Positions 7,449 to 26,069 of a DNA stretch of 26,069 nucleotides are shown here, piece by piece (positions within the stretch are counted from its first letter, which is position 1; each line of letters starts with the position of its first letter). The notes under the pieces were generated by a model that was not told where the DNA came from, searched no databases, and saw nothing but the letters and a program-made list of their open reading frames with translations. Made by a program: the position numbers and the translations under genes. The stretch covers positions 1 through 26,069 of the IMG/VR virus record IMGVR_UViG_3300033123_000549; one strand, given 5' to 3'. The DNA is from a virus. Lineage: Duplodnaviria > Caudoviricetes.

Positions 7449-7616
7449 ATGAAAAAACCGAAATTTATCATCGCGGAAATCGACGAAGATTTGAAACAAA
7501 GATTCGATTCGAAAGTCCGCGAAGAAGGATCGAAGAATTCGCGCGTCCTTCGCCGTTTGATTCGGGCGTACATTACGAACGAAAACGACCAAAATAAAAA
7601 AGGCGCTTCCGATTAA
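7449..7616 (+). CDS. Ribbon-helix-helix (CopG/Arc-like) DNA-binding protein, 55 aa
   Basis: Own translation: MKKPKFIIAEIDEDLKQRFDSKVREEGSKNSRVLRRLIRAYITNENDQNKKGASD. Strand-helix-G-x-x-x-S-helix pattern. A-rich upstream region; below the ORF-track size cutoff. Confidence 0.75.
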   Translation: MKKPKFIIAEIDEDLKQRFDSKVREEGSKNSRVLRRLIRAYITNENDQNKKGASD

Positions 7617-12537: not shown

Positions 12538-12918
12538 TTACAAAGTTGAAACCGGATTCGAAAAAATTACTGAAAATTCAATAGGCGAAAGTGGATCGAT
12601 TTCATTCAAAACGATAAACGAATCGCGTTCCACCATTACCGGAACCGGATCGTTCAATTCCGGAACGATCAAAAAAACCGTCGGCGAAAGTTTGATCGAC
12701 GAAATGAAGTCGCGATCGCTTCCTGAAATTCGGCCGGATTCGAACGAAAGTCGGCGGCGTGTTGCTTTGATCGGAATTTGCGAAAGCGCTTCGTTTTGAT
12801 TTGTGAAAACGATCGATTCGCCTGGCGAAATTTCGCTTTCGGCTTTGATTCGAAAGGAAAAGGCGTTGAAGCCATTGTTCCACCAAACCAGCGTTTGAAT
12901 ATATTTGAAACAGTCCAT
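12538..12918 (-). CDS. Putative tail protein
   Basis: 126-aa ORF with LVWWNNGFNAFSF, lying in the tail module with 3-bp gaps to its neighbours. Confidence 0.55.
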   Translation of the reverse strand: MDCFKYIQTLVWWNNGFNAFSFRIKAESEISPGESIVFTNQNEALSQIPIKATRRRLSFESGRISGSDRDFISSIKLSPTVFLIVPELNDPVPVMVERDSFIVLNEIDPLSPIEFSVIFSNPVSTL

Positions 12919-17188: not shown

Positions 17189-17511
17189 AGTCCGTGGTTG
17201 AAGTTTTTCGCGTCCAGTTTTTCGATCGTTCTTTGAGCCCAGGCGATTCCTTCATCGCCGCCCCAGGCGTCCCACATTAAGCCACCACAGCCGGCCGAAT
17301 AGGGCGTTTTTGAGTTTCGGCGGTGGCGTTCAAAAGCCGCCATTCTTCGGACGGTTGTTTCCGATAGGTTTTCCCGGTTCGCGAGTTGGCGCGCCCTGGC
17401 CCAGCCGACTGGCGTTCCGCAGCCGCGTGGATTGCCGGTTTTCCGTCGATATTCGAGCGCGCGTTTGGCGTTATCGCTGGCGGCTTCCGGGTAATCGTTA
17501 TAGGTTGCCAT
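17185..17511 (-). CDS. Conserved phage protein of unknown function (YNDYP...CGTPVG...GCGGLMWDAWGG domain)
   Basis: 108-aa ORF overlapping both neighbours. I recognise the motif pattern from phage head-associated proteins; not verified by search. Confidence 0.7.
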   Translation of the reverse strand: MATYNDYPEAASDNAKRALEYRRKTGNPRGCGTPVGWARARQLANRENLSETTVRRMAAFERHRRNSKTPYSAGCGGLMWDAWGGDEGIAWAQRTIEKLDAKNFNHGL

Positions 17512-17995
17512 TCTTTTTGAAGTTTGAAAAGTTGGTTTCGACGTTTGATTTCGTAAGCGTTACATAGGCCGTTTTTCCGGCGCGTTTGATCGCTCGAAGA
17601 ATCTGGTTCCGGTTTCCGGACGCGACTTTCGAAACGTGAATCCAGTCCGGATTTTGATCGTTTCCAAATTCATAAATAAGTTGATCGAATTCGACGTTCA
17701 AAGCCAGCCAATAAAACGCTTCTTTATTTCGGTCGCCGGCGTCCAGGTCGATCGCTTCGCCGCGCGTGTGCGCCGAATTTTTACTTCCGCCGATAGCGCG
17801 GTTCACTTCAGGCGATCGGTAGAACGACGTAATCCGAACCGGTTCGCCCAGGTATTCGCGAAGCGGTTCGAAACATTCATTCGCGACGCGTTGCATATTT
17901 TCCAGCGTCGGCGCGTTCACTATTTGCGGAATATTTCGCCGGATTGCAGTCGCCGAATAAGTCGCTTCTTTCAAAGAAATATGTTTTGAAATCAT
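17498..17995 (-). CDS. Peptidase M15A family zinc peptidase, putative endolysin
   Basis: SFYRSPEVNRAIGGSKNSAHTRGEAID (SxH-x6-D) and WIHVS zinc-ligand motifs. ATGA overlap places the start at 17995. Confidence 0.9.
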   Translation of the reverse strand: MISKHISLKEATYSATAIRRNIPQIVNAPTLENMQRVANECFEPLREYLGEPVRITSFYRSPEVNRAIGGSKNSAHTRGEAIDLDAGDRNKEAFYWLALNVEFDQLIYEFGNDQNPDWIHVSKVASGNRNQILRAIKRAGKTAYVTLTKSNVETNFSNFKKNGNL

Positions 17996-18246
17996 TTCCA
18001 TTTTTCGAATTGTGATTTTATTTCATTTGACAATTTTTCGGCGTTTGTTACGATAACTTTTCCCATAATTTCAAAAATATTTTCAAGTTCTTCGCGTGGA
18101 ATATTCGCCGTAAAATCTTCCCAGGTTCCGTTTTTAAAACGAATTTTCCCTTTATATTTACTGATTTCGCGATCCTTTGAAAAAAGATTTTGTTCGATAG
18201 TGATCGAGTAAATTTCCCAGCCGTCGTTTTTTTCTAAATTTTCCAT
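17992..18246 (-). CDS. Hypothetical protein
   Basis: 84-aa ORF overlapping both neighbours. Confidence 0.65.
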   Translation of the reverse strand: MENLEKNDGWEIYSITIEQNLFSKDREISKYKGKIRFKNGTWEDFTANIPREELENIFEIMGKVIVTNAEKLSNEIKSQFEKWK

Positions 18247-18581
18247 TTTTGCAAAATTACTTTTTTGAATTCTTTGAATTCCAGGATCGTTTCTTTGTCC
18301 GAAAACGCCCTGAAAATTTCGTTTTCGATCCGGTTCAAAACGTCTTCGATATTTTCCACGTTTGAAACGACGATTCCGAACTGAACGGAAATGTTTTCCG
18401 GAATGGAAGCGTCTGCGACGTTTGCGCGGCGTGAAAAGCCGGAATAATATTCGAAGCCGTTCCAGTAATCGTTCGCACCTTTCGGATCGTAATAAAAGCC
18501 GACCTGAACGAAAGCGTCGATTTTTCTTCCGTCCAGGTAGGTTTTTTCGAATCGACGTTTGAAGTTCGGAAATTTTTCCAT
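18234..18581 (-). CDS. Hypothetical protein
   Basis: 115-aa ORF starting 1 bp after the SSB stop. Confidence 0.65.
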   Translation of the reverse strand: MEKFPNFKRRFEKTYLDGRKIDAFVQVGFYYDPKGANDYWNGFEYYSGFSRRANVADASIPENISVQFGIVVSNVENIEDVLNRIENEIFRAFSDKETILEFKEFKKVILQKWKI

Positions 18582-18582
18582 T

Positions 18583-18969
18583 TTAGAACGGTAAATCGTC
18601 GGCGAATTCGTCTTTTTGATTTGTTGCCGGCGCCGTTACCGGTGCGGCTGAATCGGATCGCTTTGTCAAAAGTTGAATTTCATTCGCCACCAATTCAAAC
18701 GACGCCTGGGCCGTTCCGTCTTTTCCAAGGTAGGCCGAAACTTCCGGACGGCCTTCGACAAAGATTTTGTCGCCTTTGTGAATGTAGTCGGCCAGGACGG
18801 CAGTTTTTCCTTCCTGGACGAATTTTTTACATTTTACCCAGGTTGTTTTTTCTTCCGTTTTCGTTTTGTACGTGTAAGCGACGGAAAAAACGATAACCTG
18901 AAGGCCATTGTTTAAAACTTTGACTTCCGCCGAGGTTCCTACGTTTCCAATGATTTGAGTTTTCAACAT
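18583..18969 (-). CDS. ssb: Single-stranded DNA-binding protein
   Basis: IIGNVG, FSVA, TTWVKC, YIHKGDKIFVEGR and the acidic C-terminal tip DDLPF. Confidence 0.95.
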   Translation of the reverse strand: MLKTQIIGNVGTSAEVKVLNNGLQVIVFSVAYTYKTKTEEKTTWVKCKKFVQEGKTAVLADYIHKGDKIFVEGRPEVSAYLGKDGTAQASFELVANEIQLLTKRSDSAAPVTAPATNQKDEFADDLPF

Positions 18970-18990
18970 ATTAAAAAAAATTTAGTTTAG

Positions 18991-19094
18991 TAGTCAGGAC
19001 AGGATTCGAACCTGCAAGCAGAGGCGGCGTCCATCTTCTGCGAGACTTTTCTATGGGAGGCGCCAGCGGTATTCCATATTCCCGCCACCTGACT
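18991..19094 (-). ncRNA. tRNA-like RNA (104 nt) without a canonical anticodon arm
   Basis: Acceptor stem AGTCAGG/CCTGACT plus discriminator A. D stem GCGG/CCGC with GG in the loop. T arm GCAGG-TTCGAAT-CCTGT. The 50-nt middle does not fold into a 5-bp/7-nt anticodon arm. No encoded CCA. Confidence 0.75.
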
Positions 19095-19253
19095 TTATTT
19101 TTCATTTTTTGAAAGTTTGGATCGTTTAGTTTCGACCCAGATTCCGCGTTTGGTTTTCGTTTCGAAAATAACCGTCGCCGAATTTCCGTCTTCGCTTTTT
19201 TCGTAACGGATTCGAGCGTTTCCGCGTTTGATTTGTCTTTTCAGTGATTGCAT
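19095..19253 (-). CDS. Small basic hypothetical protein, 52 aa
   Basis: Own translation: MQSLKRQIKRGNARIRYEKSEDGNSATVIFETKTKRGIWVETKRSKLSKNEK. Lies downstream of a promoter-like site, and its stop abuts the tRNA-like RNA. Confidence 0.6.
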   Translation of the reverse strand: MQSLKRQIKRGNARIRYEKSEDGNSATVIFETKTKRGIWVETKRSKLSKNEK

Positions 19254-19278
19254 AACGACCAATTTTTTGAAAGTTTCC

Positions 19279-19308
19279 CAAAGATAAAAAAATTTTTCAA
19301 ATTTCGAA
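19279..19308 (-). promoter_or_regulatory. Bacteroidota-type promoter candidate
   Basis: TATCTTTG (TAnnTTTG) at 19279..19286. The -33 element is imperfect (TTCG). Confidence 0.5.
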
Positions 19309-19569
19309 ATAGATTTTCGGAATTCCGTTTTCGATTTGTGTTTTGATTCCGGAAAAGAACGGATCGGTTTTTTTTATCTTCCAAAAAAGCGAAATTTTTT
19401 TGATTCGAACGAAGTTCAATTCATTTCGGCAAAATACCAATTCTTTCGAAATTTGTTGTTTTGTTCGATCCATTTCCGAAAGTTCGTTCCGGCGTTTGAG
19501 AAGCGCGCGTTCGTAATTTACGAAGAAAACCAGCGCTTCTTTCGGATCGTCGAATCCGTAGGTTTTCAT
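19297..19569 (-). CDS. Hypothetical protein
   Basis: 90-aa ORF with an ATGA overlap with the methyltransferase stop. Confidence 0.6.
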   Translation of the reverse strand: MKTYGFDDPKEALVFFVNYERALLKRRNELSEMDRTKQQISKELVFCRNELNFVRIKKISLFWKIKKTDPFFSGIKTQIENGIPKIYFEI

Positions 19570-20183
19570 AAAAAAAGGCGCGTTTGTGAAATATGAAGTT
19601 CGAATCGTTTTTTTGTCGCTTTGAAATATTCCGGATCGATTTCCGTCGCGAAAAATTCAAGTCCGGCGCGTTCGGCGGCGATTGCGGACGATCCGCTTCC
19701 CAGGTGAGTATCTATTATTTTATCCCCTGGCTTCGCGTAATTTTTGAAAATCCAGTCGTAAAGCGCTACCGGTTTCTGAGTTGGGTGAATTCGATCGTTT
19801 TGCATAGAACGAAGGACGAATTTTCGCGGCGCCGTTTCGAATGAAGTCCAGGCGAATTCGCCGTCTGCGAACGTCATTCCTTCGGCCGTCAATTTATCCC
19901 AAAAAATGAAATGTTTACACGGCCCAAGCGGAAAATAATTTCCGCCCCAGATTATTTGATTCTTTGAAACGCGAAACAATTCCGAAAAATATTCCGCGCT
20001 CGGAATTTGATCGTCCCAGGTCGCTTCGGCGAAACGTTTTCGTTTGCCTTTTTTTCGGCCAAGGTTCGCGTTTATATTTATACCGTAGGGCGGATCCACG
20101 ACGGCCAGGTCAAAATATTTATCCGGAAATTTTTTCATTTCCGAAACGCAGTCGGCGTTCAAAAGTTGGATTTGTGAATTCAT
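19566..20183 (-). CDS. DNA amino-methyltransferase (N6/N4 family, beta class)
   Basis: VVDPPYG catalytic motif followed by HPTQKPVALY and the IDTHLGSGSS SAM-binding motif. Confidence 0.93.
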   Translation of the reverse strand: MNSQIQLLNADCVSEMKKFPDKYFDLAVVDPPYGININANLGRKKGKRKRFAEATWDDQIPSAEYFSELFRVSKNQIIWGGNYFPLGPCKHFIFWDKLTAEGMTFADGEFAWTSFETAPRKFVLRSMQNDRIHPTQKPVALYDWIFKNYAKPGDKIIDTHLGSGSSAIAAERAGLEFFATEIDPEYFKATKKRFELHISQTRLFL

Positions 20184-20383
20184 TTTTTTTCGATTTTAAG
20201 TTTTCCGGACGTGATCGCGTCCCAGGTTGTTTTGATTTTTTGAAGTGAATCTTTCGGAATGGATTCCAGGAAATCTTCGATTTTCATTTCGCGGCCGTCA
20301 AAAAGTACGGTTTTTTGCGCGAAGACGTTCGTCGCGTTTTTTGGTTTGATCCAGGTTTTTGTTTGCGCTGGTGTCCGTTTCAT
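20180..20383 (-). CDS. Hypothetical protein
   Basis: 67-aa ORF with ATGA overlaps at both ends. Confidence 0.65.
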   Translation of the reverse strand: MKRTPAQTKTWIKPKNATNVFAQKTVLFDGREMKIEDFLESIPKDSLQKIKTTWDAITSGKLKIEKK

Positions 20384-20862
20384 TTTTTCCGATATATTTT
20401 CGCGTCTTCGAATTTCAAAAAAGCGTTTTCACGTTTGACCGTTTCGATTTTCAGGCAATTTTTCGCGACTTCGGACGCGCGTCTTTCGACGTCGATTAGT
20501 TGGTTTCCGTAGTCGTTCGTTATTTGCCAAACGGCCAGGAAATCGTCTTCCATTAAGTCGGTAATTAAAAAAAGCGGCGCCGAAAAAAGGAACGAAAGCG
20601 CGACCGATTTTTCGAATTTTGCAAACGGAATAAGAAACGTTTTCATTTGTTTTAATGATTCCAGCGTCGCCGGAAGATCGCCGAAGGAATATCGGTTTTT
20701 CAATTCCAAAAGGCCGCGAAGTTGGCCGTCTCGAACGATCAAAAAGTCGATCGCGCAGTATTTCGAAGTCGATAAAAGTTCGCATTTGAAAATCTTTTCG
20801 ACGATCCGGGCCGTCTTTTCTTCTTCCGAAAGGCAGTGTTCGAAGTTTAGATCGTTTTTCAT
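20380..20862 (-). CDS. PD-(D/E)XK family nuclease
   Basis: AIDFLIVRDGQLRGLLELKNR gives D...ExK spacing, preceded by an acidic helix (EEEK). Confidence 0.7.
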   Translation of the reverse strand: MKNDLNFEHCLSEEEKTARIVEKIFKCELLSTSKYCAIDFLIVRDGQLRGLLELKNRYSFGDLPATLESLKQMKTFLIPFAKFEKSVALSFLFSAPLFLITDLMEDDFLAVWQITNDYGNQLIDVERRASEVAKNCLKIETVKRENAFLKFEDAKIYRKK

Positions 20863-21668
20863 TCGTCAAAACGTTTTTTCAAATCGTCCAGGACTTTCGA
20901 TTTTTTTTCGGCCGTGAAAAAAGTCGTTTCCAAAAGAACGGCTTTCGCTTCCGAAATTATTCGCGTCGTTTCTTCGGCGTCGCTTAAAAGGCGGATTCGT
21001 TCGAATGGATTCTTTTCGCTTTCGGCGTTGTATTTCAAACGGATTTTCGCGAATTCCAGGGCGCTGTTTTTTTGTTCGTGATTGAAATAAATCGAAGAAT
21101 TTTCTTCCTGGCCTTCGTGAATGAAATCGTAAACGACGGCCGCTGGAATATATCCCAAAAAATTCAAAAGTCCGGTTTCGATAAAAGGTTTCGCGATCGT
21201 TAAATAGAAATCGCGATCCAGTTTTCGTTTTTCTTGCGGCGTTGGCTGGTTCGTTTGAACGTGAACGGCCGCCAGGGCGCGTTCGTTTTCACGTGTGGCG
21301 CGTTCGACTTCGTTTTGATATGAACGTACCACCTTCGAAAAAAAGACGGCGGAAAACGTCTGAAAATGATCCGGAACGTTTTGAAGTTCGCCGGCGGCGT
21401 ACATAGTGAACGCCTGGCGAATTTGTTTGATAGTCAAAAATCCGAAGTTTGATCGAATGAATGAAATCAAAACGCGCGTTTGAAAATCGTCCGGAAGGTT
21501 GGTTCCTCGAATTCCGATCAAAGCGAAGACGGTCGAAAGCGTTTCGATCAAATCTTTGTCGGTTTCAAACGTCGAAATTTTCGGCGCTTGTTTCGCCTGA
21601 AGAATAAGCGCGTCGCGCCCAGTCGTTAAGATTTGCGGAAAATCCGTTTTTTGAATTTGTGTTTTCAT
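20859..21668 (-). CDS. Replication accessory protein (helicase loader/inhibitor-like)
   Basis: 269 aa directly after the initiator. FGFLTIKQIRQAF...DHFQTFSAVFFSKVVRSY pattern; function inferred mainly from position. Confidence 0.55.
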   Translation of the reverse strand: MKTQIQKTDFPQILTTGRDALILQAKQAPKISTFETDKDLIETLSTVFALIGIRGTNLPDDFQTRVLISFIRSNFGFLTIKQIRQAFTMYAAGELQNVPDHFQTFSAVFFSKVVRSYQNEVERATRENERALAAVHVQTNQPTPQEKRKLDRDFYLTIAKPFIETGLLNFLGYIPAAVVYDFIHEGQEENSSIYFNHEQKNSALEFAKIRLKYNAESEKNPFERIRLLSDAEETTRIISEAKAVLLETTFFTAEKKSKVLDDLKKRFDE

Positions 21669-22371
21669 TGTTTTGAAATTTTTTTTGATTTGTTGGAATA
21701 GTGGCCCAGTTGAAAAAGTGGCGCTGGAATTCGATTTTCGATTCGTACTTCCGGCCGTTTCCCTTTGCGAAAATAACGAACTTTTCGAGCGCTGGCAAAA
21801 TGAAAGATTTTCCGCCGATCGCCTGGGCTAAATTGAAAAGCCAAGATTCGTTTTCCGGTTGAATGATTTCGGCGGAAAATTCGTCGATTCCGGCCGGCTT
21901 CAAATCTTCGTCTTTTTGGATTTCGTCAAACGAACTTTTTTGTTTGTTTTTTATTTTATCTTTTGTTATTTTCTTTTCTATATAGGTGGCAGTGCGGAAA
22001 ATTTCCGCGTTGTCTTCCGCGTTGTCTTCCGCGTTGTCGGCTTTGACAAAGTGGATTTTTTCCGCGTTGTCTTCCGCGTTGTCGAACGTGAATTCGATCC
22101 GTTTGGCCCTGGCCTGGCCGACGATTTCCACCGTTCGAAATAGGCCAGCGGCTTCCAATTCATTCCAATATTTCGAAGCCGAATCGCGCGAAATACCCAG
22201 GTCGATCGAAGCGTCCGTCGGCGTCAAAAAAACGTCAGATTTGCGTCGCCGGTTCCAAAGATCCAAAAGGTAAAAACCGAACGCGATCGCCTGGAAGGAA
22301 ATCTTTCGGCGCGCGTAAGCGTCAAAAATCCAGCGTCCGGCATCGTAACCGGTGGCGATTTGTTTTTTCAT
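21565..22371 (-). CDS. Replication initiator protein (lambda O-like architecture)
   Basis: ATG 22371 (MKKQIATG). N-terminal winged HTH (ASIDLGISRDSASKYWNELEAAGLF), central iterons with an AT-rich tract, and a C-terminal FQRHFFNW domain. Confidence 0.8.
   Translation of the reverse strand: MKKQIATGYDAGRWIFDAYARRKISFQAIAFGFYLLDLWNRRRKSDVFLTPTDASIDLGISRDSASKYWNELEAAGLFRTVEIVGQARAKRIEFTFDNAEDNAEKIHFVKADNAEDNAEDNAEIFRTATYIEKKITKDKIKNKQKSSFDEIQKDEDLKPAGIDEFSAEIIQPENESWLFNLAQAIGGKSFILPALEKFVIFAKGNGRKYESKIEFQRHFFNWATIPTNQKKFQNNENTNSKNGFSANLNDWARRAYSSGETSAENFDV
22003..22083. repeat. Iterons of the putative replication origin: five copies of TTCCGCGTTGTC
   Basis: Copies at 22003, 22015, 22027, 22060 and 22072. 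Adjacent AT-rich tract at ~21935..21983 and palindrome GCGGAAA-A-TTTCCGC at 21994..22008. Confidence 0.85.
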
Positions 22372-22376
22372 TGCAA

Positions 22377-22460
22377 TAAAAAAGGCCCAAAGGCCCAGGC
22401 GGTAGGGACGCCCAGGCCAAAAGGCCAAAGGTTTCGATTTTGCAAACGTTTTTTCCCTAC
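22377..22460 (-). promoter_or_regulatory. Structured leader RNA (terminator hairpin whose loop is complementary to the 5' segment) upstream of the initiator
   Basis: GGCCUGGGCG-UCCCUAC-CGCCUGGGCC stem with two G-U pairs, extended by GGCCU/GGGCC and followed by U6. GUAGGGA at 22454..22460 complements the loop. Confidence 0.7.
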
Positions 22461-22474
22461 AAAAAAACGATCAT

Positions 22475-22505
22475 TAAAGATACGAAAAAAAATTAACTTC
22501 CGCAA
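22475..22505 (-). promoter_or_regulatory. Promoter candidate for the replication operon
   Basis: TTG-N20-TATCTTTA, one mismatch to TAnnTTTG, just upstream of the structured leader. Confidence 0.45.
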
Positions 22506-22636
22506 CCAAAACATTCGAACGGCGAATCGTCCGGCTTTGAATTTTGATCTTCCGAAGTTATTCGATCGATCGCTTCCTTCGCCTTTGCTTCGTCGATTTT
22601 CGGGCCGAAGTTTTCGAATTCGTCTTCCGGATTCAT
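22493..22636 (-). CDS. 47-aa acidic peptide ending in CxxC-GS
   Basis: Own translation: MNPEDEFENFGPKIDEAKAKEAIDRITSEDQNSKPDDSPFECFGCGS. ATGA overlap with the upstream stop. Confidence 0.7.
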   Translation of the reverse strand: MNPEDEFENFGPKIDEAKAKEAIDRITSEDQNSKPDDSPFECFGCGS

Positions 22637-22902
22637 TTCGACCAATGTTTGAACGTTGGCCGTTTTCCGGACGCCAGTTCGCTTCCAAGTAACGAAATAA
22701 GATAGTTCGCCTGGGCGACTTTGTCGTAAAATTTCGCTTCGAAGGCCTGGCGTTTCAAATTTTGAACGCGATCCAAGCGCTGGGCGATCGTGAAATCGCG
22801 ACCTTTTAGAATTATTCCTGGCATAGTGTAAGCCGTTGAAATTTGAACTTTGTTTTCCCTGGGCCGAATAACACGACCCAGGATATTTTCGAAAGTAATC
22901 AT
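22633..22902 (-). CDS. Hypothetical protein
   Basis: 89-aa ORF with ATGA overlaps at both ends. Confidence 0.65.
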   Translation of the reverse strand: MITFENILGRVIRPRENKVQISTAYTMPGIILKGRDFTIAQRLDRVQNLKRQAFEAKFYDKVAQANYLISLLGSELASGKRPTFKHWSK

Positions 22903-23378
22903 TTAAGCGAAATTTTCAAAACGGTGGAAGATTTTTTTATCGGTGGAAATACTTCGACCAGTTCGCCGGTTTCTTCGATAACAATCGGAAGTTTGCCAGG
23001 AAGCGACTTCAGGAATTTTTCACGTTCAGATTTTTTCGCTTTTATTTCGGTTTCCTTTTCCAAAATTTCGGCCAGGATCGGATCGTTCGTTTCGCTGAAG
23101 TCGTATCGAACGCCGGCTTCGGCGACTGAAAAATCGACGCCGAAAGCGGACGATCCTTTTCCGCCGTGTTTAGCGGCTTCGGTTAGCGCGGCGTCCATTA
23201 TTTTCGAACGAACGTCTTCGGCGACCTTTGCGAGTTTATGCAAGTGAATAAACACTTCCAGCGCGTTTGTGTTTCCGTCTTCGACGTTTGAAACGATTTG
23301 TTCCACCAATGAAGAAACTTCTTCTTTTCCGGAATTTGGCGAAAGGATCGCCGACAAATTTTCGATTTGTGTTTTCAT
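22899..23378 (-). CDS. Conserved hypothetical phage protein (recombination module)
   Basis: 159 aa with an MKTQI start and a GVRYDFSETNDP motif; follows ERF. Confidence 0.7.
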   Translation of the reverse strand: MKTQIENLSAILSPNSGKEEVSSLVEQIVSNVEDGNTNALEVFIHLHKLAKVAEDVRSKIMDAALTEAAKHGGKGSSAFGVDFSVAEAGVRYDFSETNDPILAEILEKETEIKAKKSEREKFLKSLPGKLPIVIEETGELVEVFPPIKKSSTVLKISLK

Positions 23379-23397
23379 AAAAATAAAAATTTAAGGT

Positions 23398-24039
23398 TTA
23401 GTTTTTTGTTTCGGATTCAATAGCGCGAAGCGTCGCGTCGATTTCTTCGCCCAGGTCGGCGGAAATGTAAAAGTAAGCGGCGAATTTATCCAGGACGTCT
23501 TTTTCGCCAGCGCGAAAGCGATCGTACATTTTTGAAAGTTGTTCGGCGTTCGGCGCTTGCTTTGTTTTCGGTTGGCCTGGTTTCGATTCGTGTGTTTTGG
23601 AATCCGGATCGTTTTCTTCGCCGACGATCGGAATCGCGAACGTCTGAATCATAGCGTATTTATAGGCCGACGTTTGGGCTTTATTCGTCGCTTTGTCGCT
23701 GGAATCCATCGCTTCGCCGAAAGTCGTAATCGAATACGAAGAACCGTCTTCCGAACAAATAAAAGTGTATTTCATTTTCAGAATTACGTAATAAATCGCG
23801 CCGCCGGTTTTAGAAACTTTTTCGAATGAATCGCGGCTTTCGGCTTCCTGAAGGACGATCAAATTATTCTTCGCCAGGATCGGGCCGAGGACGTTATAAA
23901 GATCATCGATTCCGCGATATTTGAAACGCTGCTGTTCATTTACGCGATCTTTTCCGATTCCGATTTTCGCCAGGTCGCTGGCGGTTTTTGTAAGCGCTTC
24001 GAATACCTTCGGCGCTTCGTTTGTGATTTGTGTTTTCAT
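23398..24039 (-). CDS. ERF family single-strand annealing protein
   Basis: FKYRGIDDLYNVLGPILAKNNL and GEAMDSSDKATNKAQTSAYKYAMIQTFAIP...DPD motifs. The real start is probably ATG 24039. Confidence 0.88.
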   Translation of the reverse strand: MKTQITNEAPKVFEALTKTASDLAKIGIGKDRVNEQQRFKYRGIDDLYNVLGPILAKNNLIVLQEAESRDSFEKVSKTGGAIYYVILKMKYTFICSEDGSSYSITTFGEAMDSSDKATNKAQTSAYKYAMIQTFAIPIVGEENDPDSKTHESKPGQPKTKQAPNAEQLSKMYDRFRAGEKDVLDKFAAYFYISADLGEEIDATLRAIESETKN

Positions 24040-24060
24040 TTTGATTTGTGTTTGATTTTT

Positions 24061-24090
24061 CAAAGGTAAAAAACTTTTTTGATTTTGCAA
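24061..24090 (-). promoter_or_regulatory. Early promoter (Bacteroidota sigmaA consensus)
   Basis: TTG-N19-TACCTTTG. Shares AAAAAGTTTTTTACCTTTG with the promoter at 25464..25493. Confidence 0.8.
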
Positions 24091-24113
24091 TACTTCGGAA
24101 TAAAAAATTTTTT

Positions 24114-24335
24114 TTATTTTTTGATCGATTGCAAAAGAACGATTTCGGAAGCTCGAAGAATTTTATTTGCGACGCCAAACTGAAGTTCTAAACCTTCGAC
24201 GGCGCGGAAGACGGTCGGATAACTTATTCCGGCGATCCTGGCGAATTCTTTTTTTTCGACGATCGAAAGCGCGTCGATCATTTTTTTTCGTTCCGGCTTT
24301 GTTAAAGTCCGGTTTCGTTTTACATAAACTTTCAT
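24114..24335 (-). CDS. Cro-like helix-turn-helix protein, 73 aa
   Basis: ATG 24335 (ATGA overlap). KKEFARIAGISYPTVFRAVEG is an HTH pattern. Confidence 0.75.
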   Translation of the reverse strand: MKVYVKRNRTLTKPERKKMIDALSIVEKKEFARIAGISYPTVFRAVEGLELQFGVANKILRASEIVLLQSIKK

Positions 24336-24643
24336 AGGTAGTGAGTTATTGAAGGGAAAATTTCTATTGAAGCGCGAACGAAAGCGAAGTCGATCGGATC
24401 GAAACGTTTCCGAATGGATCGAATCTTTTCGGCCGTTACGACTTCCAGCCAGTTTTCTTCGTCGCCGGTTGTTGGTTTGTTTTGATCGACAAAAAAATCG
24501 ATATTTGATTTCAGGCGTTCGTCGATTTGTAAGCGGTGGCCGTTTTGTTCGAGTTCGAAAGTAAACGGCGCGAAGGCCACCGAAAACCATTTCTGAAGGT
24601 CGTTTGAATCGGTGGCGTTTAGGTTTGTGATTTGTGTTTTCAT
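24332..24643 (-). CDS. Hypothetical early protein
   Basis: 103 aa with an MKTQI start. Confidence 0.7.
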   Translation of the reverse strand: MKTQITNLNATDSNDLQKWFSVAFAPFTFELEQNGHRLQIDERLKSNIDFFVDQNKPTTGDEENWLEVVTAEKIRSIRKRFDPIDFAFVRASIEIFPSITHYL

Positions 24644-24647
24644 TTGA

Positions 24648-24878
24648 TTAAAGTTTGAAAGGTTCGCGTTTTATCATTTCATTTTTTAGCGCTTCGTCCA
24701 GCGCGGTTTTCATTTCTTCGACGGCTTCTTCGAATGTTTCCAGGCCGAATAGGTTCAATCGCGCCAGGCGTTTGAAATCGCCGGTTTCCGGATCTTCGAA
24801 TCCATATTCGAACCAATATAAAAAACCGATTTCGCCAGGTTGCTTTTCGGAATCGGTGGCAAATCTAAACGTTCCCAT
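24648..24878 (-). CDS. Hypothetical early protein
   Basis: 76-aa ORF with small gaps to both neighbours. Confidence 0.65.
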   Translation of the reverse strand: MGTFRFATDSEKQPGEIGFLYWFEYGFEDPETGDFKRLARLNLFGLETFEEAVEEMKTALDEALKNEMIKREPFKL

Positions 24879-24880
24879 TT

Positions 24881-25219
24881 TTACGCGTTTTCAATGTTAG
24901 CGAAGGATTCGATCAAATCGCGAATCGATTTCATTTCGGCCGGCGTTGCTTCGGCGTCTTCGGATTCCAGGACGATTTTTTCAATAGTTAGGCGGTAATC
25001 GTAACCGACGCCACCGATCGAAAAGTCCTGGAAGGCCTGGCCTTCGAAAAAGATTTTTAGATCGTCGCCGTCGTAATAAAGGCCGGCGAAGTCGGCCGCA
25101 GCCGTGAAGTTGTGAAGTGCGCGGTTCTTTGTAAAAACGACGCCGTTCCAGGTTTGGTTTGCGCTTTGACCGTTCATTTTTTCAAGGCGAACGTCAAAGC
25201 CGGTGATTTGTGTTTTCAT
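24881..25219 (-). CDS. Hypothetical early protein
   Basis: 112 aa with an MKTQI start. Confidence 0.7.
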   Translation of the reverse strand: MKTQITGFDVRLEKMNGQSANQTWNGVVFTKNRALHNFTAAADFAGLYYDGDDLKIFFEGQAFQDFSIGGVGYDYRLTIEKIVLESEDAEATPAEMKSIRDLIESFANIENA

Positions 25220-25236
25220 AAAAAAAAATTGAATGT

Positions 25237-25440
25237 TTATTTTGAAATGTTTTCTTCGCGAACAAATTCGACGTAATTACGGCCGAAAGTTACCTGGTAG
25301 GAAAGGTGATAAGTAACGTTCAAACGGTTATCGATTTGAACGCAGTGAATTTCGCCTGGCTTACCTAAATAGGAAATTTTTTCGCCGGCTTTGAATTTCG
25401 AATTTTGTAATTTTTCGGCTTTTGCTTGTTGGTAGTTCAT
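25237..25440 (-). CDS. Hypothetical early protein (SH3/KOW-like pattern), 67 aa
   Basis: ATG 25440 (MNYQQAKAEKLQNSKFKAGEKISYLGKPGEIHCV...). First gene after the early promoter. Confidence 0.65.
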   Translation of the reverse strand: MNYQQAKAEKLQNSKFKAGEKISYLGKPGEIHCVQIDNRLNVTYHLSYQVTFGRNYVEFVREENISK

Positions 25441-25463
25441 TTTGATTTGTGTTTTGTACCTCA

Positions 25464-25493
25464 CAAAGGTAAAAAACTTTTTTTATTCTGCAA
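25464..25493 (-). promoter_or_regulatory. Early promoter (Bacteroidota sigmaA consensus)
   Basis: TTG-N19-TACCTTTG. Confidence 0.8.
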
Positions 25494-25521
25494 GCAAAAA
25501 AGTAAAAAAAATTTTTGATAC

Positions 25522-25549
25522 AAAAAAAAGCGCCAGGAATCCCGGCGCT
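25522..25549 (-). terminator. Intrinsic terminator
   Basis: AGCGCCGGG-ATT-CCTGGCGCT followed by a T run. Confidence 0.85.
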
Positions 25550-25586
25550 CGTTTCAAAAACAACCAAATTTTTGAAAACACAAATC
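25522..25586 (-). ncRNA. Candidate ~65-nt small antisense RNA
   Basis: Lies between TATATTTG (25591..25598) and the terminator. Its 5' GAUUUGUGUUUUCA is complementary to the repeated early-gene start motif. Internal 9-bp hairpin UUUCAAAAA/UUUUUGAAA. Confidence 0.6.
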
Positions 25587-25590
25587 GAAA

Positions 25591-25620
25591 CAAATATACT
25601 TCGAAAAATTTACTTTTCGA
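25591..25620 (-). promoter_or_regulatory. Promoter candidate for the small RNA
   Basis: TCG-N19-TATATTTG: perfect -7 element, one mismatch at -33. No ORF lies between it and the terminator. Confidence 0.6.
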
Positions 25621-25849
25621 TTTTTTCTTCGTCTACGGTCGTTTGTGCCACAGCCGAAGCCACCAGGCCAGCCGTCGCAATATAGCCGACGATTCCGGCC
25701 GGAATAGCCACCGGCGCCGCAGCCAAAACGCCAGCGATCGCGGTTAAAATCATTCCAGCGTTTCGAATTTTTTTGAAGAACGACGGCGTCGGCGCGTTCA
25801 AACGTTCTTCGAGCGAAAGTGAATTCGCGGTTTTCTTTTCTTTTTTCAT
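25610..25849 (-). CDS. Small membrane protein, holin-like
   Basis: 79 aa: APTPSFFKKIRN followed by two hydrophobic helices. Confidence 0.7.
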   Translation of the reverse strand: MKKEKKTANSLSLEERLNAPTPSFFKKIRNAGMILTAIAGVLAAAPVAIPAGIVGYIATAGLVASAVAQTTVDEEKIEK

Positions 25850-25866
25850 ATTTCAAAAAGTTAGTT

Positions 25867-26019
25867 TCATTCGATAAATATTTCGACGTAGGACTGGCCT
25901 TCGTTTTCAGATTCCCAAAGGCGCGAACCAGGAACGAAAACGTTCGTCGCCTGTTCGAAAGTTAGATCGTAAAGCGTGGCGCCTTCCGGATCCGTTACGG
26001 CGTAGCGTTTTTTTATCAT
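25867..26019 (-). CDS. Small hypothetical protein, 50 aa (follows the fibre gene)
   Basis: Own translation: MIKKRYAVTDPEGATLYDLTFEQATNVFVPGSRLWESENEGQSYVEIFIE. ATGA overlap with the fibre stop. Confidence 0.6.
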   Translation of the reverse strand: MIKKRYAVTDPEGATLYDLTFEQATNVFVPGSRLWESENEGQSYVEIFIE

Positions 26020-26069
26020 TGTTTCAAAATTTCAATAAATACGAATTCCAGAATCGCCGTATCGGTTCC
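26016..26069 (-). CDS. C-terminal 17 aa of the tail fibre (joins 1..1416 across the junction)
   Basis: Reads GTDTAILEFVFIEILKQ-stop from the first base of the minus strand, in frame with ...FNILKAT at position 1. Confidence 0.75.
   Translation of the reverse strand, partial: GTDTAILEFVFIEILKQ

Follow-up and report, generated by a model that had tools for sequence, protein, structure and literature searches.

Shared starts of early genes as probable targets of a predicted antisense small RNA in an uncultured phage

The c4 antisense RNA of phages P1 and P7, as PMC5320573 describes it, is phage-encoded, about 70 nt long and acts in trans on the phage's own mRNA over the ribosome-binding region, with a specificity that changes with its pairing segment. 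It consists of three stem-loops, pairs through its a'/b' loops, is cut by RNase P and has a role in lysogeny and immunity (PMC5320573), while the predicted unit described here has a linear 5' seed and about ten sites over start codons, with no lysogeny module found. Membership of the c4 family was rejected, as there was no match to the Rfam c4 model and the fold lacks the three stem-loops with a'/b' loops. Trans-encoded seed sRNAs, including the phage RNAs PreS and VpdS (bioRxiv 10.1101/2024.10.31.621285), similarly have their own promoter and terminator and an unpaired seed against a motif present in many targets. PreS is described in that source as Hfq-bound and directed mainly at host genes, whereas the RNA predicted here would pair with early genes of the phage itself, perfectly over up to 14-15 nt inside the coding sequence.

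The start-associated sequence (SAS) of Cluster K mycobacteriophages is an asymmetric 13-bp repeat found at non-structural gene starts and oriented the same way throughout, apart from a single inverted copy in four phages; PMC3203893, which also names the stoperators of L5, leaves its function open, with an RNA or a protein as partner, and it has been open since 2011. The motif described here is likewise found in one orientation at non-structural genes with a single reverse copy, but SAS lies upstream of the start and contains the Shine-Dalgarno core (PMC3203893), while our motif overlaps the ATG and has no such core, so membership of SAS was rejected. In phage Anaya, the reverse SAS copy (59882, one mismatch) is intergenic and lies inside a predicted stem-loop, with no U-tract terminator seen after it, and the parallel is therefore partial. 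The L5 stoperators, T4 RegA sites and T4 PeSL cassettes offer further likenesses, namely repeated oriented sites at genes, recognition of start regions and repeats tied to gene shuffling; to our knowledge, these are protein-read or recombination elements without a complementary RNA unit. The arrangement reported here is likely that of a trans-encoded base-pairing sRNA, with targets inside codons 1-5 of the phage's own early genes.

Motif copies at unrelated gene starts

The same first 14 nt are common to five unrelated early genes of an uncultured phage, represented by a stretch of 26,069 nt (the window). The motif ATGAAAACACAAAT occurs exactly on the minus strand at 25219, 24643, 24039, 23378 and 21668, which are the five ATG positions that an earlier sequence-only reading had given for non-homologous ORFs; the best blastp E among the five proteins is 0.048, and nothing is in common beyond their N-termini. 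The predicted target sites are as follows.

25444..25455, minus strand: copy ahead of the first early gene (67 aa, 25237-25440), within its predicted 5' UTR
25205..25219, minus strand: exact site, codons 1-5 of the 112-aa gene (24881-25219)
24629..24643, minus strand: exact site, codons 1-5 of the 103-aa gene (24332-24643), the gene indel site relative to strain L143
24025..24053, minus strand: two sites in tandem, one in the 5' UTR (24043-24053) and one at the start (24025-24039) of the gene for the Erf annealing protein (23398-24039)
23364..23378, minus strand: exact site, start of the 159-aa gene (22899-23378), 15-nt pairing
22357..22371, minus strand: near site (1 mismatch), start of the 235-aa initiator-like gene
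21654..21668, minus strand: site opening the 269-aa gene (20859-21668), with a G-U pair at its last base
20169..20183, minus strand: near site (2 mismatches), start of the DNA methyltransferase gene
19333..19347, minus strand: in-frame internal copy within a 90-aa ORF; the third -7 box follows about 50 nt downstream
19230..19244, minus strand: near site, codons 4-8 of the 52-aa gene (19095-19253)
18952..18966, minus strand: near site, codons 2-6 of the SSB gene (18583-18969)

Near-copies at 22371 (one mismatch) and at 20183, 19244 and 18966 (two mismatches each) agree with those that the sequence-only reading had placed at the starts of the initiator, methyltransferase, SSB and 52-aa genes, except that in the 52-aa gene the copy is not at the ATG. 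Look-alikes of the 235-aa initiator-like protein include HTH_36 and Phage_rep_O clusters, as a lead only. The same reading was right about the 23 identical bp at two gene starts (24019..24041 and 24623..24645) and about 5' UTR copies behind both early promoters (at 25455 and 24054, minus strand), while the copy at 19333-19347, which it took for non-coding, is in frame inside the 90-aa ORF (19297-19569, IKTQIEN). All eight minus-strand occurrences of ACACAAAT fall within 19341-25452 and none in the structural region, from which it had also reported the motif absent.

Under a third-order Markov model, exact ATGAAAACACAAAT is expected 0.0014 times on the minus strand, against five observed gene starts, and under the phage's own N-terminal codon usage 3e-4 times in 42 genes, so the motif starts are well above the A-rich N-terminal codon bias against which a check had been proposed. 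The 15-mer is present in about 280 viral stretches; among 120 control viral loci picked for holding it (about 40 of them with short flanks only), 39 had no such start, 75 had one and 6 had two, compared with six here. The N-termini of homologues, also proposed as a check, differ in 118 of 120 homologues of the 159-aa protein. Since all five exact-copy starts use ACA, which is the least frequent Thr codon within gene bodies (12%), and because of the UTR copies and the differently starting homologues, the earlier view of a nucleic-acid rather than a peptide signal is supported.

A predicted small RNA between late and early genes

The copies do not all share one orientation, as had been claimed: a single reverse-complement copy lies at 25572-25586 and provides the predicted 5' end of a 66-nt unit without genes. 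This unit separates the last late gene from the first early promoter and, as a sequence-based prediction, has a -7 box of the Bacteroidota type, a toehold of 7-9 unpaired nt, a hairpin and an intrinsic terminator.

25610..25849, minus strand: 79-aa gene, last before the unit (phrog_25580, weak)
25591..25598, minus strand: TAnnTTTG -7 box (TATATTTG) of the predicted sRNA, 11 nt past the stop of the 79-aa late gene
25573..25586, minus strand: 14-nt seed, exact complement of TGAAAACACAAATC, beginning at the predicted +1
25521..25586, minus strand: predicted 66-nt small RNA with 5' seed, hairpin (25577-25552), terminator stem (25550-25528) and U tract
25464..25471, minus strand: -7 box of early promoter P1 (TTGC-19 nt-TACCTTTG)
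24061..24068, minus strand: -7 box of early promoter P2 (TTGC-19 nt-TACCTTTG)
19279..19286, minus strand: third -7 box (TATCTTTG), ahead of the 52-aa gene

The seed starts 4 nt behind the TAnnTTTG box (position -12..-5 from +1 taken from PMC9723704), its first 7 nt are predicted unpaired (p >= 0.9), and the exact 14-mer is expected 1.4e-4 times at its place. The predicted RNA has a z of about -4.5 to -4.7 (0/200 shuffles), and no -33-like TTG was found upstream of its -7 box. The 3' UTR of the 79-aa gene is an alternative source of the predicted RNA. Rfam returned nothing at gathering score in 17500-26069 (at E<=1 only weak tRNA, ncS54 and rliI) and no matches in the related loci L206, L225, L282 and L143, ARAGORN found no tRNA, and we found no prior description of such a unit in the literature searched.

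When the 26,053 16-mers on the transcribed strand were compared with 42 gene-start windows, the unit's 5' end gave the best complement. Predicted binding of the whole folded RNA has a median of -11.9 kcal/mol at 19 early starts versus -3.3 at 23 late starts (p=0.002), and values at or below -7 were obtained for 12/19 and 2/23, respectively. The early-versus-other contrast reaches significance in this phage only (p=1.5e-4), and not in L206 (0.36), L282 (0.07) or L345 (0.22). Match counts alone are not diagnostic, since a plus-strand box at 12900 has seven ten-nt matches merely from overlap with an A-rich late start. Near-copies retain the ACAAATC or TCAAATC end, which is the portion facing the toehold. 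Only one of the variant sites is a G-U-compatible change, and the others are true mismatches. Each of the three early boxes on the minus strand is followed by a first gene that bears a site.

We consider it probable that the shared ATGAAAACACAAATC starts are binding sites of a predicted trans-acting antisense phage sRNA, which would jointly block translation of the early recombination and replication genes. The predicted RNA (25586-25521, minus strand) would pair through its exactly complementary 5' end with the gene starts, the open 7-9-nt toehold meeting ACAAAUC first and then unzipping over the AUG, and pairing over the start codon would repress initiation. It would presumably act late, because the unit closes the late operon, has no -33 element, and no integrase, repressor or antirepressor family was found among the 42 proteins, with most early proteins lacking a family assignment. 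Bacteroidota genes have no Shine-Dalgarno sites (PMC6847099), and the target would accordingly sit on the start codon and codons 2-5, which would force unrelated proteins to begin MKTQI.

Related lineages and competing explanations

The same layout with other 5' seeds occurs at the same position in three other phage lineages (L206/L282/L345, L225 and L134), where the units lie 5-25 nt past the last upstream gene and 150-201 nt before the next start, the seed again falling on the predicted +1. With exceptions, a given seed finds its best pairing among the early starts of its own phage. A complement of at least 9 nt to the window seed is found in 6/20 own starts versus 0/18, 0/17, 0/17 and 1/14 in the others; for the L206 seed, 7/18, 6/17 and 5/17 in its own group versus 1/20 and 1/14; and for the L225 seed, 5/14 own starts versus 0/20, 1/18, 1/17 and 0/17 (gene calls in relatives came from a crude script, and one window call was corrected by hand). 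For the annealase leader, too, pairing is strongest with the cognate seed (-20.4 against -13.3 for the runner-up; -19.4 against -9.9; -21.6 against -11.4), and in the orthologous 269-aa gene ACA stands at codon 3 in this phage (seed UGU), AAT in L206 (seed AUU). For some orthologues specificity is weak, as the window seed ties with the L206 seed on the 269-aa start of L206 and L282, and the 159-aa start of L134 has no seed match. The 15-nt seed does not vary in the L206 group (4/4), unlike the middle of the unit; the fold has 0/13 compensatory pairs.

A pattern scan covered 18 seed families flanked by 4 kb or more. Only three of them had at least three own 10-nt matches, and these are the ones from which the pattern was built; the other 15, with flanks of at most 10 kb, had 0-1. 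The box with this exact seed was a unit in 1/70 loci, namely the phage's own record, and none of 11 other loci with the 159-aa family had such a unit, 7/11 lacking a non-coding terminator in the span examined. CAT content of other units differed weakly from controls (10/21 vs 14/52, p=0.08). A both-strand unit detector was dropped, its output being dominated by gene starts read backwards. Several marks of a trans-encoded sRNA are present in the sequence: a promoter box and terminator, an accessible seed matching several distant starts, and seed-target covariation with exceptions.

The sequence-only reading had offered an sRNA target, a protein-binding site or a recombination anchor; the first is favoured because the complementary element exists and covaries in relatives. 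An asymmetric, stoperator-like DNA site that a phage protein would read near promoters and gene starts, with the reverse copy as an inverted operator upstream of P1, is unlikely. In its favour, copies follow P1 and P2 closely and one precedes the third box by about 50 nt; a 73-aa HTH-like protein (a lead) and a weak RHH protein are encoded by the phage, and G-U-type variants are few. Against it, in four seed families the predicted +1 of a box-to-terminator unit coincides with the start of the single reverse copy, whose 5' end is predicted unpaired, the motif is not palindromic, and sites in relatives move between leader and coding sequence, yet remain at translation starts.

Still less probably, the shared starts play no part in regulation and serve as homology anchors when early gene cassettes are exchanged by Erf; the Erf gene, the 23 identical bp and strain L143 speak for this. 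In this 96%-identical strain, an extra 74-aa gene lies between two imperfect repeats spanning the start codon, directly before the 24643 gene; however, this is a single event, the extra gene begins MKKQQ, only a partial copy, and the covariation, the 5' UTR copies and the reverse copy with its separate unit are left unexplained. This indel at start-codon microhomology is probably a by-product, and recombination at the motif is more likely a route by which the site spreads. The unit itself has no substitutions in L143, only one extra T in the U tract, while the ERF start copy is lost (MKTQP) and the 159-aa copy altered (MKSQI). A sister species (portal 77%, 159-aa protein 81%, compared on protein level) retains MKTQI. 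Scans based on Erf, the 159-aa protein, terminase and portal returned only the own record, L143 and distant loci; no related locus was found in genome contigs, and no close cultured phage was found.

We give an equally low probability to a variant of the antisense reading in timing or outcome, in which the RNA would be active early or constitutively, as a c4-like silencer for immunity or a carrier state, or would cleave transcripts instead of blocking ribosomes. The unit's own -7 box and the sites in the first gene behind all three early boxes, as c4-type control would need (PMC5320573), are consistent with it, but the missing -33 element, the lack of an integrase or repressor family and four exact sites inside operons at translation starts argue against it. 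Chance, A/C-rich Bacteroidota start bias or a peptide signal MKTQI is largely refuted and very improbable, even with A-rich Bacteroidota starts (PMC6847099), A/C-rich starts in related phages, the many viral stretches holding the 15-mer and the MKTQI of the sister species, given the low expectations, at most two such starts per control locus, the use of ACA, the UTR copies and the reverse copy.

Meaning for phage gene control

The antisense reading touches two open questions, how small phages without an obvious late regulator silence their early genes, and why identical motifs stand at unrelated gene starts in some phages (SAS; PMC3203893). The locus supplies a concrete predicted RNA, about ten predicted targets and natural seed variants for swap experiments, and would be a compact design for translational silencing in Bacteroidota lacking Shine-Dalgarno sites. 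It also gives a genomic flag: where unrelated phage proteins have common N-termini, a reverse complement should be looked for. Tentatively, and as a serious possibility rather than a probable one, a Bacteroidota phage family may switch from early to late expression by one 5'-seed sRNA at the late/early boundary, the seed and its regulon being rewritten together in each lineage, here within codons 1-5 with convergence of N-termini. If this is true, microhomology at starts would let new genes enter the regulon, and the same logic would account for the single reverse SAS copy in mycobacteriophages.

Reality of the shared start and its genomic setting

Five early genes begin with exactly ATGAAAACACAAAT (peptide MKTQI), and these, together with four near-copies and two UTR copies, were all recovered where the sequence-only reading had placed them; protein comparison also bore out its claim that the products are unrelated past the first residues. 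Two of its details need correction: the copy at 19333, which it took as non-coding, lies in frame within an ORF, and one copy has the opposite orientation, while a single orientation had been reported for all. Chance is excluded in three ways. The Markov expectation is 0.0014 against five exact starts, the phage's own N-terminal codons give an expectation of 3e-4, and such starts number at most two per locus in 120 control loci, taken of about 280 holding the 15-mer and each selected for holding it. The Thr codon is ACA in 5/5 motif starts; within gene bodies ACA encodes 12% of Thr. Among the 120 homologues of the 159-aa early protein listed, only two begin with MKTQI, one from the cluster of this phage, the other from a sister species. 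The shared start is a real feature.

The window is the whole assembly and, since both ends are joined in a near-identical viral record, it is a circular phage genome of 26,069 bp, with nearly all genes on the minus strand:

25440-17992 (-): early genes, including Erf, PD-(D/E)XK, methyltransferase and SSB
after these (-), in order: endolysin, terminase, tape measure, protease, portal, holin

The 42 window proteins gave no match to an integrase or repressor family. The terminase has its best matches in Bacteroidales phages and portal homologues carry names from Hymenobacter, which, together with the TAnnTTTG boxes, suggests a Bacteroidota host. A lone plus-strand 55-aa gene (7449-7616, +) between the tape measure and protease genes has an RHH match at E 0.001, weak and below the cutoff. 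At about 21995-22075 (-), within the 235-aa initiator-like gene, several GACAACGCGGAA direct repeats precede an A-rich stretch, resembling an iteron-type origin. A tRNA-like element (18991-19094, -) between the 52-aa gene and SSB, ending some 20 nt upstream of the SSB start, scores 27 bits against the Rfam tRNA gathering score of 29; it has a long, irregular anticodon arm and is not called by ARAGORN.

The reverse copy and a predicted small RNA

The reverse copy, overlooked by the sequence-only reading, sits between the 79-aa gene, whose stop is at 25610, and the early promoter P1. Here the transcribed strand carries, in order:

25598-25591 (-): TATATTTG box, followed by four bases
25586-25573 (-): 14-nt complement of the motif (the seed)
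downstream (-): hairpin, then terminator

PMC9723704 places the Flavobacterium box at -12 to -5, and by this spacing the predicted +1 is the first base of the 14-nt complement. The fold of the predicted 66-nt RNA beats 200/200 shuffles, the terminator contributing much of that, and its first seven bases, a predicted toehold, are open in the modelled fold and face the motif end retained by the near-copies. Of the 26,053 16-mers of the transcribed strand, the one at the 5' end of this RNA shows the highest complementarity to the 42 start windows, which were curated by hand, with ten perfect bases in 6/42; with both folds paid for, calculated binding reaches -7 kcal/mol or lower at 12/19 early and 2/23 late starts. 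Match counts call for caution, as a plus-strand box at 12900 reaches 7, because it overlaps a late start and 11/22 late genes (18001-1416) begin with AAAAATGG, a second, weaker start class seen in 2/19 early genes. This box and the TAnnTTTG boxes at 24613-24640 (+), within codons of the 126-aa and 103-aa genes, point back over the start codons of these genes, and a transcript from 24620 (+) would likewise be antisense to the motif; both may be chance occurrences.

Units and seeds in other phages

The 96% strain L143 keeps the unit without substitution, with one extra T in the U tract, which is one of 23 differences in 614 columns around it; taken alone, this conservation carries little weight. 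Scanning 234 loci, each at least 3 kb long (some repeats of one contig), gave 26 box-to-terminator units, where, besides this phage, L206 and L225 have three or more own targets each and L134 one. A seed-unit pattern modelled on L206, L225 and the window returned 120 loci; 48/122 matches (these loci, L206 and the window) are non-coding with a terminator, the new ones including L282, L345 (92% identical to L206) and L326. The window shares two or three early proteins, at 31-36%, with L206, L282, L345 and L134, and none detectably with L225. In the window and these five loci the unit starts 5-25 nt after the last upstream gene and 150-201 nt before the next start, with the seed at the predicted +1.

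Many viral contigs also carry short units that run from TATATTTG to a terminator and have 5' ends rich in U and G, among them L289, L290, L294, L296, L307, L310, L321, L324, L328, L329, L337, L342, L351, L360 and others; with no target within the flank examined, they may be sRNAs that act on the host or on distant sites, or else plain terminators. Early genes of the related phages L132, L131, L147 and L149 have common ATGAACAACAACAAC-type starts, and the scanned spans of L132, L131 and L147 hold no complementary unit.

Seeds vary by lineage, and own starts with a complement of at least 9 nt number 6/20 in the window, 7/18, 6/17 and 5/17 in the L206 group and 5/14 in L225, against 0-1 for foreign seeds. 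The annealase is Erf in the window and RecT/Bet in L206 and L134, and in three lineages the calculated pairing of its leader favours the own seed by 7-10 kcal/mol. Where the seed goes from UGU to AUU, the orthologous 269-aa gene has AAT in place of ACA as its codon 3. Against generality, own matches are only 0-1 in 15/18 seed families, a unit was seen in 0/11 other loci of the 159-aa family, the contrast between early and other starts has no significance in the L206 group, and some orthologue pairs lack seed specificity.

Known systems and proposed action

Both c4, the antisense RNA of P1/P7, and seed sRNAs act in a manner like that proposed here; membership in c4 itself was rejected on the Rfam search and the published c4 description. 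The pattern of many forward copies and one reverse is common to the motif and the start-associated sequences of Cluster K mycobacteriophages: Anaya has 14 forward and one reverse (36,000-60,835 searched). The latter (L401:23871-23883, Anaya 59870-59882) lies in the gp96-gp97 gap, as part of a predicted stem-loop that sits behind a long hairpin. A literature search, mainly at abstract level and covering few subscription journals, turned up no account of a phage sRNA that pairs with a start motif common to its own early genes.

The motif, its complement, the layout and the covariation are directly observed, and we consider it fairly likely that the motif copies are target sites of the predicted phage antisense sRNA. 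The RNA would come from its own box, which has no -33 element, or from the 3' end of a late message; pairing would nucleate on ACAAAUC, then extend across AUG, and early-gene initiation would be blocked late in infection. Since Bacteroidota initiate translation without Shine-Dalgarno pairing, according to PMC6847099, the start codon and first codons would be the place to cover. Recombination at starts does occur, as L143 has an extra gene before the 24643 gene, flanked by imperfect start-codon repeats; it is probably a by-product and a route for the spread of sites. In the L206 group the majority of sites lie in leaders, and therefore MKTQI would be this lineage's version of a broader scheme.
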